Source: Nitrospirota bacterium (lineage in GTDB: Bacteria > Nitrospirota > UBA9217). From it: a stretch of DNA of 64,000 bases. Below the pieces are notes generated by a model. That model was not told where the DNA came from and searched no databases. It was given only the letters and a program-made list of their open reading frames with translations. The first letter of the stretch is position 1; each line of letters opens with the position of its first letter. Of the stretch, positions 55,025-60,342 are shown piece by piece. The DNA lies in assembly GCA_963754875.1 (NCBI GenBank), contig CAVWHO010000014.1:32001-96000 (forward strand), read 5' to 3'. Made by a program: the position numbers and the translations under genes.

Positions 55025-55100
55025 GGTTCCCGAATGAAGCGCGGGATAAAAGAGGCGTTGTCGATCATCTAAAGGGGTGTCCCCACCAATGAAAACATCG

Positions 55101-55142
55101 AAAAATATGGCCTTCCACTTTACAGGGAGGCCATATTTTTTT
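55101..55142. terminator. rho-independent terminator
   Basis: AAAAATATGGCCTTCC..GGGAGGCCATATTTTTTT. Confidence 0.8.
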
Positions 55143-55404
55143 GTGGCGAAGAATTGTGATCGATACATGCAGTGCGTACTCATGTACTTGTTATAGTGGC
55201 CGCTTTATGAAATATAAGGTAAGCTGTAGTTTTTCCCGATGGTGTCTCTTCGACAGTCAAGGATGCGCTTGAGCGTTCTTTAAAAAATCTCGACAAGATA
55301 GTTGTTGTGAAGAATTCAGTTGAAATATTGCGAGTACAGCGCGATAATTTTTCATTGAAAACGTCTTTCCTGAATCACGGCGTACGTCCTGACAGGAGGT
55401 TTCC

Positions 55405-57318
55405 ATGCGCATCCTACTCGCCCTTTTCTTCATCCTGCTTTTTTCGACCTCGGCCGTGGCAGGCGGCATCCAAGCTGGGGGGCAATCGGACCGCCAGGCC
55501 CCCGATAAATCACAGATCCTTCTGAGACAGGCTCGCGCAGTCTTCGGATTGCTGCCGCAGCGGATGCCCGGCAGCGACCGAGATACGCCGGACCTGATCG
55601 CGCTTGGGAAAATGCTGTACTATGAGCCCAACCTTTCTATCAACAGGACTCAGAGCTGTAACTCTTGCCACCCGTTAGATGGAAAGCTGGCGGGCGCGGA
55701 CAACCTCGTCCATTCACCCGGCGCCCTCGGGACTATAGGCACACGGAACGCGCCTACGACGCTCAATGCCGGGTTCCAGATCTCGCAGTTCTGGGACGGC
55801 CGCGCTGACGATCTCGCGGAGCAGTCGAAGGGGCCTATCCTGAATGTGATGGAAATGGGCATGCCCCATATCGATGTCTGTCTCAAGCGGATGAAACAGT
55901 CCGATCGGATCCGGGAGGCCTTCCATGCGGCGTTTCCGGACCAGACAGAGTCTGTCACATATGACAACCTTGCCTTGTCCATCGCGGCATTCGAGCGCAC
56001 ACTCGTTTCTCGGGGACGTTTTGACCAGTTCCTTGAGGGCGATTCGGGCGCTCTCAGTGAGCGTGAAAAGGAAGGGCTCGGTATTTTCATAAACAAGGGG
56101 TGCATCCGCTGCCACAACGGACCGCTCCTCGGCGGCATGCTGTACCAGCGGGTGGGCATCTACCATGAGTACAAGAATACCTCAGATGTGGGTCGCTTTA
56201 GCGTCACGGGGAACGAGAACGACCGTTTTGTCTTCAAAGTGCCGTCGCTTCGTAATGTCACACTCACCGCGCCGTACTTCCACGACGGGGGGGTCGCGAC
56301 GCTAGCAGAAGCAATAGATGACATGGCCTGGTTCGAACTGGACGAGAAGCTTTCAAGCGCGGAGATCGACTTGATCCTCCGGTTTTTCACCTCGCTTGCC
56401 GACCTCGATCGCACCACCGCTCCCATGAAAAAGTCGAAGGAGACGGTGAGCTGGAACCCTCCGAAGATGGAAACAATCCCTGCGGGTGCGCGGGGTGATC
56501 TAATCAGGTACGGGCATCAGCTCGTGAGCAGGTCGCAGGCGCTTCTTGGCAGCCGGGCAAAATCGCCGGCCATGGTCTATCTGCATAGCACGCTTGCGTG
56601 CGTCAACTGCCACCAGGAGGACGGCACCAAGATATACGGCATTCCCTGGATGGGAGTGACCCTTCGTTACCCGCAGTATAGCTCTCGGTCGAACTTGGAG
56701 GTGACACTTGAGGACCGCGTCAATGACTGCATGGAACGGAGCATGAACGGCCGTGCCCTTCCCAAGGATAGCCATGAGATGCGGGCCATTATCGCATACC
56801 TATCCTGGCTCGGCACTGACCTGCCTGGGGAACTTGCGGGCCTGCTCAAGGTAAGCTTGTCCGTTCCGGACCGCCGTGCGAATCTGGATAAAGGTGCAGG
56901 GATTTACCGCGAATTCTGCCAGGCCTGTCATGGAGCGGATGGGTCAGGCTACCAGGCCCGATCAGCTTTGGACGAGGGAATCTTCGTCACGCCGCCGATT
57001 GCCGGCCCAAACAGCTTCAATACCGGAGCAGGCATGCACCGGCTTCTTCTGGCCGCGGCTTTTGTGAGGGGCAATATGCCGCTCGGCACGCCTTGGGACC
57101 GGCCTGTGCTGACCGATGATGAGGCATACGACGTCGCGGCGTATATCAATTCCCTGGACCGACCCGATATGCCAGGCACAGATAAGGACTGGCTTGATTT
57201 ATCTAAAAAACCCGTAGATTGCCCGTATCCGCCCTATGCCGACGGCTTCAGCCTCGAGCAGCATAGATACGGGCCTTTTAAACAGATAAGCGAAGCAAAG
57301 AAAAAGAAAGGCAAATGA
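55405..57318 (+). CDS. tetraheme fusion: di-heme cytochrome c peroxidase + TsdA-type thiosulfate dehydrogenase
   Basis: One signal peptide and four CXXCH; N-half RNAPT..NA, QFWDGRA, FKVPSLRNV..TAPYFHDG; C-half RVNDCMERSMNG, SFNTGAGM, NMPLG, AYDVAAYINS. Confidence 0.9.
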   Translation: MRILLALFFILLFSTSAVAGGIQAGGQSDRQAPDKSQILLRQARAVFGLLPQRMPGSDRDTPDLIALGKMLYYEPNLSINRTQSCNSCHPLDGKLAGADNLVHSPGALGTIGTRNAPTTLNAGFQISQFWDGRADDLAEQSKGPILNVMEMGMPHIDVCLKRMKQSDRIREAFHAAFPDQTESVTYDNLALSIAAFERTLVSRGRFDQFLEGDSGALSEREKEGLGIFINKGCIRCHNGPLLGGMLYQRVGIYHEYKNTSDVGRFSVTGNENDRFVFKVPSLRNVTLTAPYFHDGGVATLAEAIDDMAWFELDEKLSSAEIDLILRFFTSLADLDRTTAPMKKSKETVSWNPPKMETIPAGARGDLIRYGHQLVSRSQALLGSRAKSPAMVYLHSTLACVNCHQEDGTKIYGIPWMGVTLRYPQYSSRSNLEVTLEDRVNDCMERSMNGRALPKDSHEMRAIIAYLSWLGTDLPGELAGLLKVSLSVPDRRANLDKGAGIYREFCQACHGADGSGYQARSALDEGIFVTPPIAGPNSFNTGAGMHRLLLAAAFVRGNMPLGTPWDRPVLTDDEAYDVAAYINSLDRPDMPGTDKDWLDLSKKPVDCPYPPYADGFSLEQHRYGPFKQISEAKKKKGK

Positions 57319-57457
57319 TCGGAGACAGTCGATGACCGGTCATCCCCGCCGGTCTGCCGCTGGAACCTATAGTAGACACCAATAACGAATTCAGGTGCCT
57401 TCCTGCAATTCTGAGCCGAACATGCCGCGTTGGGAAAGAATTTAAGGTTTAAAACTG

Positions 57458-57498
57458 ATTGAAAAGCCTGGAGGATGCATTCCTCCAGGCTTTTCAAT
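57458..57498. terminator. strong bidirectional terminator (18-bp perfect stem)
   Basis: ATTGAAAAGCCTGGAGGA-TGCAT-TCCTCCAGGCTTTTCAAT then a T-run. Confidence 0.85.
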
Positions 57499-57582
57499 TT
57501 TTTATCTGTGCAGCCAATAATACTGAATCCGTTTCGTGCTGCTCGCTCACGCATGCCCTGCATTGTGCCCATTTTTTTTGTT

Positions 57583-57640
57583 ATACCCTAAAAATACCCC
57601 ATTTATTTTCTTGACAAATGACCAAGGGGGGAAATATAAT
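57583..57640 (+). promoter_or_regulatory. sigma70 promoter with upstream operator (copy 1)
   Basis: ATACCCTAAAAATACCCCAT-N8-TTGACA-N18-TATAAT. Confidence 0.75.
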
Positions 57641-57765
57641 GATTTACCATAAGTTTTATTTTAGACATGTAATATTGGTAAGTTATCGTATCAGCCATGC
57701 TCCTACTCCAGATCAGGAATCGTAATCACGAGGATAATGATGTCTCAATTAAGAAAGGGGAAAGA

Positions 57766-58110
57766 ATGAGAATTAAATTTATGCTACTTGCAGTCATGGT
57801 AACAGGAGTTCTAATCGGTTGCAGTTCAACAACGAAATTCACGAGAGACCTGCTTATAACATCAGAGCCGGCAGGGGCAGTAGTTTATATGGACGGTGAC
57901 AAAATTGGGGAGACGCCATTGAAAATCCAGACCTTCTTTACGTGGAACAAGGATGCACCCTATGATTCCTTGTTGCGAAGGGTTATCCAGGTCAAAAAGG
58001 ATGGTTATGTGCCCCAGATCCGCGACCTCTATCCGATTGATATGCCAAATATTACGTTTTTCCTGAGCCCAGATAAAGCTCAAGGCAATGAAAAAGGCGG
58101 GATAAAATGA
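57766..58110 (+). CDS. PEGA-domain lipoprotein
   Basis: Lipobox LIGC; ITSEPAGAVVYMDGDKIGETP; VKKDGY. Confidence 0.88.
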   Translation: MRIKFMLLAVMVTGVLIGCSSTTKFTRDLLITSEPAGAVVYMDGDKIGETPLKIQTFFTWNKDAPYDSLLRRVIQVKKDGYVPQIRDLYPIDMPNITFFLSPDKAQGNEKGGIK

Positions 58111-58490
58111 AGAATATTTTCAGTGGCATCCTCTTCTGTTTTATTTTTTTGGCCGGCTGCGCCGCCACTTCGACCTTCACCGTAAAAACAAACCCCGCGG
58201 GCGCTGATATTTATGTCGATGGGGAACGCATCGGGCAGACGCCCGCAACTATAAAGGTGAAGTTTTCTGAAAATGCGCAAATGGTCACTGAAAAAAAGAT
58301 ACTTGCTGTGAAACTGCGCGGGTACCGGGAAAAGAAGGAAGTAATTTCCCCGGAAGACATAACGCAAAAGACGCTGGAATTCGCGCTTGTGCCTGAGTTG
58401 AATGAAAAATCGGCTGCCCCGGTTGTCAGCAAAGCGACGGCGACAACGACAGCGCAAACATCGCAGGAAACCAAACCAGTGCGGCGTTAG
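58107..58490 (+). CDS. PEGA-domain lipoprotein
   Basis: Lipobox LAGC; KTNPAGADIYVDGERIGQTP; KLRGY; ATGA overlap. Confidence 0.88.
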   Translation: MKNIFSGILFCFIFLAGCAATSTFTVKTNPAGADIYVDGERIGQTPATIKVKFSENAQMVTEKKILAVKLRGYREKKEVISPEDITQKTLEFALVPELNEKSAAPVVSKATATTTAQTSQETKPVRR

Positions 58491-58896
58491 TGAGCTCTGG
58501 GACTACAACACAAAGGCAGGAGATTAACCTATTGAGCGGTTCCAGCAATGAGATCATGACGACGACAGGTCAGGAATCATCCTGCCCTGTCGTCGAGGCA
58601 ACTGCCCCGGTTCAGGGCTGAGAAGTTGAACCGAGTGGCAGGTCTCTTGCGGAAACTTGAGAACCACGTCTGTGGATGTTGGCAATATTGCAGGCAAAAT
58701 TTTTTGGAAATAAATAAAGGAACAGCCTTTTCCCCCTTCTCCGGTAAGCACGGAGTAAGCACGTCGTCCGGTGTTTATTCGACTCAATAGTGTTCTGCTT
58801 CTTTAAAATTGCAGAACATCACTTGGAAAGTTCAATGCCTGTGGAGCAGTATCTATCAGTTTGCAACGAGCATATTACAATGCATGGGAGATAGCT

Positions 58897-59115
58897 ATGG
58901 ACTATAAAGATAGCCATACAGATATAATTATAACTGCCGATTATAGCCGCTCTGCTCTTTGGCTGCTTTTCCTCTTCTCTATTTTTTTTGTATTTGCAGG
59001 ACTATGGATCGTATTAGATGCAGCGAGCTCATATGATATGCTGATGGGTGGTTTGTCAGCCTTCTGTTTCGGTGCGGCTTCTATTGCATTGGGGATCAAG
59101 TTAAAGACTAAGTAG
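58897..59115 (+). CDS. small two-TM protein, low GC, possibly a truncated remnant
   Basis: GGGAG RBS, two hydrophobic helices. Confidence 0.45.
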   Translation: MDYKDSHTDIIITADYSRSALWLLFLFSIFFVFAGLWIVLDAASSYDMLMGGLSAFCFGAASIALGIKLKTK

Positions 59116-59248
59116 GTACTGATAGTTGGATAATGAGCCTGATTTGGCTGGGCTGAAAAATAACTGTTATAACTTGTGGCGTGATGTACCTGAACCAGGT
59201 GCAATTGTCATTCTTTTAAACTTATCAGGTTACATCTATATTAATCGC

Positions 59249-59304
59249 ATACCCTAAAAATACTCCATCACATTGCTTGACAAAAAGTAACACTTTCTTA
59301 TAAT
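59249..59304 (+). promoter_or_regulatory. sigma70 promoter with upstream operator (copy 2)
   Basis: ATACCCTAAAAATACTCCAT-N8-TTGACA-N16-TATAAT. Confidence 0.75.
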
Positions 59305-59378
59305 CAAAACATCCATCTATTGAAATGCACCATATAAGCAAGATATGTAGCGATCTAAACATTACGAGGAGTCAATTC

Positions 59379-60230
59379 ATGCAGAGATTGCTGAGCGCAA
59401 CAGTGGTAGTTCTATTATCGGCGGCATTACTGGCTGCCTGCAGCAGCGGCGGGTCCGGATCCGGTACAGTCAAAACAAGCACCGCCGATGTAAGCCTTAG
59501 CGGTATCACCTCAGTGGACTACCAGCCCGGCAGCGCAATACAGACATCCTTGAGCACGACCGCCAGCACTACGGTGCTCGATTTTTATTTTCCGCCGGAC
59601 ACAGCCGGTCAAGCGGGAGTGATCACGATTTCCGCAATTCCTGAGAGCGATCTACCCGCGGGACTGCACAGCAGCAAACTCAGATTTCAGGCCGATCCAG
59701 CCAACGTTTTCATTTATGCATTCTCCCTGGCATCGCAGGACGGCAATATAACGAGTTTCAATGCCCCCGTCACACTGAGCGGGACGCTATCGACGTCCGT
59801 TCCAGCGGGTACCACGCTGAACCTAGCATCTTTCACCAGCAACACATGGGTGGAGGTAGCGACACTCAATGTAGGAGCAAACGGCTCCCTCATTCAGAAT
59901 CTTACCTCGACGGCTTTGCCGGGCATTGTGACCCTGGGAACCTATGTATTATATCAGCCTGCCTATCCCTGGGTCGGGACCTGGGTTGGGTCGGACGTCT
60001 CAACGTGCGGCTTCTACTCGGGACCGATCACCATGACGATTACTTCGCCAGGCGGAAACGCCTTGAACCTCTCATATGTCGGAACCGGCATCACAGGCGC
60101 CTATCCCCTGACCTACTCCGGGAACACGGCCACTGATGCGGCTGGAACTGTTACGTACACTCTAAACGGCAATTCGATGACCGCTTCGGAACCGAATTCC
60201 TGTCAGACCGGGACGTTTACCAGACAATAA
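59379..60230 (+). CDS. Ser/Thr/Gly-rich surface lipoprotein
   Basis: GAGGAG RBS, lipobox LAAC-SSGGSG, beta-rich body, C-terminal WVGTW domain with 2 Cys. Confidence 0.85.
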   Translation: MQRLLSATVVVLLSAALLAACSSGGSGSGTVKTSTADVSLSGITSVDYQPGSAIQTSLSTTASTTVLDFYFPPDTAGQAGVITISAIPESDLPAGLHSSKLRFQADPANVFIYAFSLASQDGNITSFNAPVTLSGTLSTSVPAGTTLNLASFTSNTWVEVATLNVGANGSLIQNLTSTALPGIVTLGTYVLYQPAYPWVGTWVGSDVSTCGFYSGPITMTITSPGGNALNLSYVGTGITGAYPLTYSGNTATDAAGTVTYTLNGNSMTASEPNSCQTGTFTRQ

Positions 60231-60342
60231 TCATATTTCGTTCAATCCCAGGCTACCCGGCTTGATCAATGTCGGCGATCAAAGTCGCGGCTCGAAGAGA
60301 GCGACAATCGTTCCGCCTTAGGTACCGCAGAATTTTGCGTTC

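Follow-up and report, generated by a model that had tools for sequence, protein, structure and literature searches.

A four-haem protein combining dihaem cytochrome c peroxidase and TsdA modules: a predicted thiosulfate:hydrogen-peroxide oxidoreductase

The locus considered here lies in a window of 64,000 nucleotides of Nitrospirota DNA (the whole stretch analysed, to which plain coordinates refer) and raises the question whether one polypeptide bearing the marks of both a bacterial cytochrome c peroxidase (CCP) and the thiosulfate dehydrogenase TsdA is a genuine fusion and, if so, what chemistry the joining of the two could permit. The initial annotation had proposed that such a protein could wire thiosulfate oxidation directly to H2O2 reduction. 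The gene and its accompanying signals are as follows:

55320..55348, + strand: match to a sigma-70-like promoter, TTGAAA-17-GATAAT, 10/12; weak, with 4 sites against 2.2 expected in shuffles
55394..55399, + strand: Shine-Dalgarno AGGAGG, 5 nt upstream of the ATG (sequence)
55405..57318, + strand: ccp-tsdA fusion gene, 637 aa, four c-type haem motifs (ORF, Pfam, PDB matches)
55405..55461, + strand: likely Sec signal peptide, residues 1-19, with an AVA end (sequence and Kyte-Doolittle hydrophobicity scan)
56410..56451, + strand: linker of about 14 residues, without a stop and without a second hydrophobic leader (sequence, contigs, hydrophobicity scan)
57457..57499, + strand: intrinsic-terminator-like hairpin with 18-nt perfect arms and a T run

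The coding region is a single ORF running without interruption from an ATG start, with CXXCH motifs at residues 85, 233, 399 and 505, in agreement with the 637-aa frame and the four motifs originally described. A Kyte-Doolittle scan detects a hydrophobic stretch at the N-terminus and no later one, as expected from the accompanying claim of one signal peptide and none after the linker. Judging by the flanking sequence signals, the gene looks monocistronic. The continuity of the linker, for which a check against spanning reads had been proposed, was examined in the contigs X1-X4, which derive from related strains and are not raw reads of the host genome: those from two other runs cross it gap-free (X1, 56104-56646, and X4, 56195-56729, each with 23 substitutions and no gaps), overlapping pieces of X2 span it and X3 lacks coverage there.

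Broken frames elsewhere in the host assembly, e.g., a narG in three pieces, make it reasonable to ask whether an assembly or frameshift artefact has fused two genes. Such an artefact is exceedingly improbable: besides the gap-free contigs and the absence of a second leader, at least 118 further full-length relatives with the same domain order were recovered from NCBI, ENA, JGI and Logan, so that the modules are not always encoded by two separate genes, and the existence of these homologues refutes the artefact reading. Of the best 120 matches listed, which include the query, 119 carry four CXXCH motifs, with 91-100% query coverage and 50-87% identity; the partial P0012 (490 aa) was left out of alignment A1. 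Since the last listed match still scores 722 bits, the family should have more than 120 members; indeed, the ESM Atlas holds a 176-member cluster, commonest in Thermodesulfobacteriota. The source names span Desulfobacter, Desulfobulbus, Desulfuromonadaceae, Syntrophales, Smithella, Kiritimatiellae, Betaproteobacteria, Parasphingorhabdus and Bacteroidota, and the nearest named relative, with 69% identity, comes from a Nitrospirota MAG, which by itself makes a host of this phylum likely. Full-length members, including the RefSeq entries WP_319492349.1 and WP_306547723.1, are annotated just as cytochrome c peroxidase or c-type cytochrome. Two fusion clusters, P0032 and P0119, likely represent two copies in one Desulfobacter genome. 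Additionally, three-haem relatives exist: P0133 combines a decayed peroxidase pocket with the TsdA haem 2 domain only, and P0125 an intact CCP with one additional haem domain.

The N-terminal half comprises the following features:

55510..56409, + strand: bacterial dihaem cytochrome c peroxidase module, residues 36-335 (Pfam, PDB, structure comparison)
55657..55671, + strand: peroxidatic (P) haem motif CNSCH (alignment to 1iqc/6qkn, conservation)
56101..56115, + strand: electron-entry (E) haem motif CIRCH; sixth ligand Met307 at 56323-56325

Here the Pfam CCP_MauG profile matches residues 63-214 (E 1.5e-47), the best PDB match is 1iqc (E 3.5e-72), and the AlphaFold model of this half superimposes on MacA (4aam) with a VIA Z of 30.1 (rmsd 2.6, 289 aligned). 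These matches, together with every CCP motif quoted in the initial annotation, namely QFWDGRA (W130), the Gln and Glu residues (Q140/E150), TAPYFHDG, the downstream Met (M307) and SPGALG (with A107 where solved CCPs have His), uphold its assignment of a dihaem CCP. Alignment to 1iqc/6qkn places Q140 and E150 in the P-haem pocket, W130 as the bridge between the haems and Ala107 in the place of the blocking His. Among the listed relatives W130 is found in 115/119, and Q140 and E150 in 119/119 each; the calcium-site residues N115, T288 (T or S) and P290 are likewise present. The roles of W130, Q140, E150, M307, N115 and P290 are taken from the accessible part of PMC10094543. At the level of the module the classical trait of two CXXCH motifs within a CCP_MauG fold is present, and the His/Met ligation of the E haem (Met280 in N. 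gonorrhoeae) has, in sequence terms only, its counterpart in Met307 (119/119 listed). The distal His on the activation loop, and with it the bis-His resting state, is absent from this module, and the four haems with a fused TsdA depart from the classical arrangement of two haems and a separate donor. MauG, MbnH and BthA were rejected as identities: the MauG and MbnH models score below their cut-offs (129.5 bits vs 443.85 and 160.7 bits vs 362.85, respectively), and the ligand position has Met307, not Tyr.

The missing histidine bears directly on whether the peroxidase half could be active. In classical CCPs the His blocks the oxidised P haem and departs on reductive activation (PMC10094543, in part), while YhjA, in which the distal ligand is absent, requires no activation (PMC10301912, in part). 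By this comparison, the absent residue is a blocking ligand of the resting state and not a catalytic residue, and its loss likely leaves a P site that is permanently open rather than dead, with no reductive activation required. Position 107 is Ala in 117/119 and Thr in 2/119 listed fusion sequences; however, in 112 stand-alone CCPs of the sister group the same position is often occupied by residues other than His (His 34, Ala 25, Val 21). Hence, the replacement that was originally pointed out in SPGALG stands, but it does not set the fusion apart, and the idea that His loss is an adaptation to fusion was rejected. The modelled CCP half fits open (mixed-valence) structures better than closed ones, both for MacA (Z 30.1 vs 24.5) and for the P. 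aeruginosa protein (Z 29.5 vs 24.3), as well as in a further open and closed pair of one protein (Z 29.5 vs 23.5), a comparison weakened as evidence by the pLDDT below 50 of loop 96-116.

The C-terminal half comprises:

56452..57294, + strand: TsdA thiosulfate dehydrogenase module, residues 350-630 (Pfam, alignment, structure comparison)
56599..56613, + strand: TsdA active-site haem 1 motif CVNCH; catalytic Cys442 at 56728-56730
56917..56931, + strand: TsdA electron-exit haem 2 motif CQACH; Asn557-Met558 at 57073-57078

The Pfam profile SoxA-TsdA (PF21342) matches residues 397-468 above its cut-off (E 2.8e-12), residues 347-596 have 4wqc as the best PDB match (E 1.1e-42), a sequence match to 5lo9 (E 5.3e-34) is confined to residues 340-594, and the modelled half superimposes on 4v2k with a VIA Z of 28.0 (rmsd 2.1, 229 aligned). 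The TsdA motifs first quoted for this half, i.e., RVNDCMERSMNG (C442), SFNTGAGM and GNMPLG (N557-M558), were all found, and together with the Pfam and 4wqc matches they sustain the TsdA assignment; the domain search that had been suggested thus matches both the CCP_MauG and the SoxA-TsdA profiles. C442, R428, R438 and R546 align with Cys96, Arg82, Arg92 and Arg197 of A. vinosum TsdA, of which we take the three arginines to be those of the substrate pocket. C442 and M558 are present in 119/119 and N557 in 119/120 of the listed relatives, as are the pocket arginines R428 (118/119), R438 (119/119) and R546 (119/119). Two related identities were rejected, SoxA because of the TIGR04484 score (44 vs 110 bits) and the absence of sox neighbours, and TsdBA because the N-terminal half is a CCP and not a TsdB dihaem cytochrome.

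All 23 tested haem-binding and catalytic residues are kept in 114/119 listed relatives, and on this conservation both active sites are under selection. Further, pairwise distances in the two halves correlate closely (Mantel r 0.96, against at most 0.19 in 500 shuffles), a pattern indicating that the halves are co-inherited. The spacing between haem motifs 2 and 3 is held at 164-169 residues in 118/119 listed relatives. An internal membrane helix is found in 0/119 of them and a lipobox-like motif in 1/119, and a quinol site of the YhjA type is not apparent from the fusion sequences. In the forward-family alignment, which amounts to about 28 effective sequences, 22 positions are conserved in 85% or more of the fusions and in no more than 25% of the stand-alone relatives. 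Eight of these 22 lie near the electron-transfer haems in sequence, i.e., D305, I321, L325, R326 and T329 near the E-haem ligand and the last helix, and Y516, V528 and W564 near haem 2; such fusion-specific positions may mark the interface of the modules, or merely the clade.

Evidence for repeated joining comes from proteins with the opposite domain order. A profile search over 1.84 billion representatives gave two TsdA-first, CCP-second proteins, P0126 and P0128, whose families comprise 5 (P0126, P0328-P0331) and 7 (P0128, P0477-P0482) full-length clusters. The CCP part of P0126 keeps the His as well as the Trp on its loop. The CCP parts of the two families group with different stand-alone CCPs, at 78-80% identity for P0126 and 63-68% for P0128. 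The TsdA part of P0126 has a Lys-Met pair as in A. vinosum, and the position of Arg197 is Gln in the P0126 family and Lys in most of the P0128 family. In a CCP tree of 55 chosen rows, built by a quick method, the three fusion families fall apart, and the AU test rejects a single CCP clade uniting the forward family with that of P0126 (p-AU 8e-60) or that of P0128 (p-AU 1e-6), the groups in this test having been defined by domain order, though with the tree seen beforehand. In the TsdA tree with five added relatives the families likewise separate, with 16/17 forward rows in one clade and P0122 outside it with weak support. A grouping of the P0128-type TsdA with the forward family was lost once those five relatives were added. 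A single TsdA clade of the forward and P0126-type proteins is not rejected (p-AU 0.23); hence, the case for independent origins is carried by the CCP half and by the order of the domains. These sequence comparisons point to at least two CCP-TsdA joining events, with a third being likely. Neighbouring separate ccp and tsdA genes were found in none of the fetched loci with a stand-alone module, many of these loci being short. The predicted fold of P0126 reaches a pTM of 0.55, its TsdA half being poorly folded from only 10 aligned rows, which makes it an unsuitable control for the forward fusion. Other joined forms also surfaced: P0170, P0203, P0206, P0484 and P0485 carry two or three tandem CCP modules per chain, and a TsdA-like domain lies inside a 733-aa open frame in two genomes (G019:C1:2375049-2375804 and G078:C67:41365-42129), so that this frame would be a further TsdA fusion with another partner.

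Taken as a single chain with two intact modules, the protein is probably a soluble periplasmic thiosulfate:hydrogen-peroxide oxidoreductase, a prediction that draws on sequence, model and analogy. The net reaction would be 2 thiosulfate + H2O2 + 2 H+ -> tetrathionate + 2 H2O, the thiosulfate and H2O2 half-reactions being of two electrons each. Thiosulfate would be oxidized at Cys442 and haem 1, from where the two electrons would pass via haem 2 (His/Met558) to the E haem (His/Met307) and through Trp130 to the P haem; H2O2 would be split there with the aid of Glu150 and Gln140, and a P haem without the blocking His would render reductive activation unnecessary. The likely role of such an enzyme would be the removal of peroxide at oxic-anoxic boundaries with no shuttle cytochrome. 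The reduction potential of H2O2 is about +1.3 V. For the remaining steps, the accessible parts of the literature give +198 mV for thiosulfate/tetrathionate and +172 mV for a His/Met haem 2 (PMC6879331), and for the E haem +210 mV in YhjA (PMC10301912) and +320 to +450 mV in classical CCPs (PMC10582990). By analogy with these parts, the potentials would run downhill from thiosulfate to the E haem. Additionally, completion of the TsdA cycle needs an acceptor that re-oxidizes both haems (PMC9562282, in part). The AlphaFold model of the full-length protein has a pLDDT of 83.1 and a pTM of 0.85, the latter being far above the TMq of single-module matches (0.43 and 0.33), which implies that in the model the two halves pack in a defined way. 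The conservation of both active sites, the co-inheritance of the halves, the repetition of the fusion in both orders and the downhill potentials together strengthen the originally proposed wiring.

The main doubt concerning the oxidoreductase reading pertains to direction and donor, given the Asn-Met at haem 2. This pattern is that of C. jejuni TsdA, which acts as a tetrathionate reductase in vivo and still oxidizes thiosulfate rapidly in vitro, at 1265 units/mg (PMC5146829, in part). Also counted against this reading are the changes of Arg197 in the reverse families, the lack of side-by-side ccp and tsdA genes, the variable neighbourhoods and the presence of two further CCP-family genes in the host. 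The same Asn-Met, the largely anaerobic lifestyle of the named hosts and the 41 host frames with at least two CXXCH motifs as possible donors would suit a chain of two tethered terminal reductases, in which an outside low-potential cytochrome feeds both and tetrathionate and H2O2 are reduced separately. We consider this unlikely, since by analogy a higher-potential E haem beside haem 2 would drain electrons from tetrathionate reduction, the P0126 family has the Lys-Met of the oxidizing A. vinosum enzyme, the host already has a ttrBCA-like operon, and repeated fusion would be poorly explained without coupling.

If coupling is granted, the CCP could yet be mainly a substitute for TsdB that passes the electrons from TsdA on to a respiratory oxidase or some different acceptor and reduces peroxide as a secondary activity. 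TsdBA (5lo9) provides a precedent for an acceptor fused ahead of TsdA, and the host has genes of the haem-copper oxidase family; however, the peroxidatic pocket residues Q140 and E150 are kept in 119/119 listed relatives, and a docked TsdA would probably hide the surface around the E haem needed by an outside partner, making this improbable. Equally improbable, in our judgement, is a variant in which the internal wiring holds and the electrons come, in vivo, from a sulfur species other than thiosulfate, for example sulfite or a persulfide/polysulfide. Sulfite does react at the catalytic Cys of C. jejuni TsdA, and two electrons are taken up by the enzyme, but this reaction is reported to be slower than that with thiosulfate (PMC9562282, in part). 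Likewise, the change of Arg197 in the reverse-order families and the sulfur-related genes downstream of the fusion at two loci (a sulfite-reductase-like/TusA gene, and a SoxB-like and DsrE pair) would fit a different donor, while in the forward family the Cys and all three pocket arginines match A. vinosum TsdA.

Comparison with characterized systems helps to place the predicted thiosulfate:hydrogen-peroxide oxidoreductase. Classical CCPs (N. europaea 1IQC, N. gonorrhoeae 6FU3 and G. sulfurreducens MacA 4AAM) share its fold, two haems and bridge Trp, as well as the Gln/Glu pocket, the Met ligand and the calcium-site residues, at about 36-43% identity; they have two haems, a blocking His and separate small cytochrome or copper donors, whereas the fusion has Ala107 and a two-haem dehydrogenase behind the peroxidase. 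The non-classical trihaem peroxidases (E. coli YhjA 9QDT, QPO and PerC) also have a built-in donor haem domain and an open P haem, with no activation (PMC10301912, in part). YhjA has one extra N-terminal haem, a membrane helix and a quinol donor; in contrast, the fusion has two extra C-terminal haems, those of TsdA, no membrane helix and no CXXCH before residue 85. The TsdA enzymes of A. vinosum (4WQ7, 4V2K) and C. jejuni share the fold (Z 28.0), the His/Cys haem 1, the His/Met haem 2 and the arginines, and the Asn before the Met is common to the fusion and the C. jejuni protein; both of these stand alone and exchange electrons with separate cytochromes. The fusion has an extra C-terminal segment of about 45 residues that is common to environmental stand-alone TsdAs. 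The TsdBA of Marichromatium purpuratum (5LO9) is likewise a four-haem chain with an acceptor ahead of TsdA; however, TsdB is a passive cytochrome relay, whereas the acceptor in the fusion is an enzyme in its own right, so that the chain would amount to a complete oxidoreductase.

A search of the openly accessible literature found no description of a CCP-TsdA fusion, in line with the initial annotation, which knew of none; the accessible part of the superfamily network paper PMC6405878 does not mention 'fusion' or 'tetraheme', and the combination of CCP and TsdA domains is visible in automatic Pfam annotation. The sequence record argues that the four-haem enzyme is real, conserved and convergently formed from two known parts. 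Described bacterial peroxidases are two-haem enzymes with small redox donors or three-haem enzymes fed by quinol (PMC10301912, in part). If the predicted function is true, a four-haem peroxidase that carries a dehydrogenase of its own would constitute a third type and, within the scope of that literature search, the first to draw on inorganic sulfur as donor. Peroxide defence would then be linked to sulfur cycling in anaerobes exposed to oxygen, where the enzyme would also be a biological source of tetrathionate. The annotation of these proteins as cytochrome c peroxidase only means that their TsdA capacity has likely been missed in genome surveys. A bolder extension, which we offer as speculative and rather doubtful, is that a third bacterial peroxidase class, invented three times, burns H2O2 with thiosulfate; in hosts with a Ttr-like reductase a periplasmic thiosulfate/tetrathionate shuttle would link the quinol pool to peroxide, providing sulfate reducers with a sulfur-based defence or a form of peroxide respiration, and sediments with a hidden source of tetrathionate.

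In the host genome the gene lies in an accessory stretch:

55068..60334: accessory stretch with the fusion, between apt and a URO-D family gene; absent there in the near relative G087

The fusion occurs in 2/301 genomes of the phylum, the host (G000) and G197, where it sits at another genomic place; given this and the absence of the stretch in G087, it behaves as an accessory gene. Its GC of 0.578 is like that of its neighbours and gives no hint of origin, and no insertion-sequence ends or flanking repeats are evident around the accessory stretch. The flanks of the five fusion loci seen have no conserved gene neighbourhood: downstream of the fusion, one has a sulfite-reductase-like protein fused to TusA (L062:13186-14406) and another a SoxB-like metallophosphoesterase (below cut-off) with a DsrE-family gene (L064:2133-4247). 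A contig search with the single fusion protein gave 1 full-length case among 23 loci, and a metagenome search (3/64 parts) gave 3 fusions among 80 loci, so that neighbourhoods are thinly sampled. No full-length match was found in 301 Bacteroidia or in 301 genomes of the order of G301, both searches being without a positive control.

The host has genes for DsrAB, DsrC, DsrMK-O, a haem-copper oxidase family and cytochrome c assembly, in addition to the two more CCP-family genes noted above, which are full-length. A search for SoxB was negative in the host genome, which is 90% complete, and positive in G197. A ttrB-ttrC-ttrA-like operon (L167:4976-10185, on G000:C4) lies behind a sigma-54 regulator and encodes a TtrA-like molybdoenzyme of 1069 aa, for which TtrA is the best model (516 bits vs a cut-off of 1750). 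The TtrA-like gene is found in 5/64 genomes of the family and, among the 15 of the genus, in the fusion carriers only; two nearer relatives lack both it and the fusion. Going by this co-occurrence, a lead from two related carrier genomes, the operon could recycle tetrathionate.

Several further observations pertain to the host genome. The narG gene lies in three frames (L171:3336-6884), a CCP/MauG-like gene in two (G000:C4:42933-43753), and a formate dehydrogenase is split by an in-frame stop, possibly selenocysteine (L166:5091-8330); frames of this kind point to possible indel errors in the assembly. In a CCP-like group that is frequent in the host's family, represented by L054 (G000:C7:9547-10464) and 16 more loci among L030-L053, Ser/Ala replaces the catalytic Glu and is followed by Phe/Tyr, and the loop reads Asn-x-Cys; going by these residues its members may not be peroxidases. 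Finally, a 36-nt repeat ending in TTGACA occurs in the window at 57583-57618 and 59249-59284, upstream of a tandem pair of PEGA-domain genes and of a gene for a 301-aa protein without a Pfam match; all of these, with the region 57697-58490, lie within the accessory stretch.
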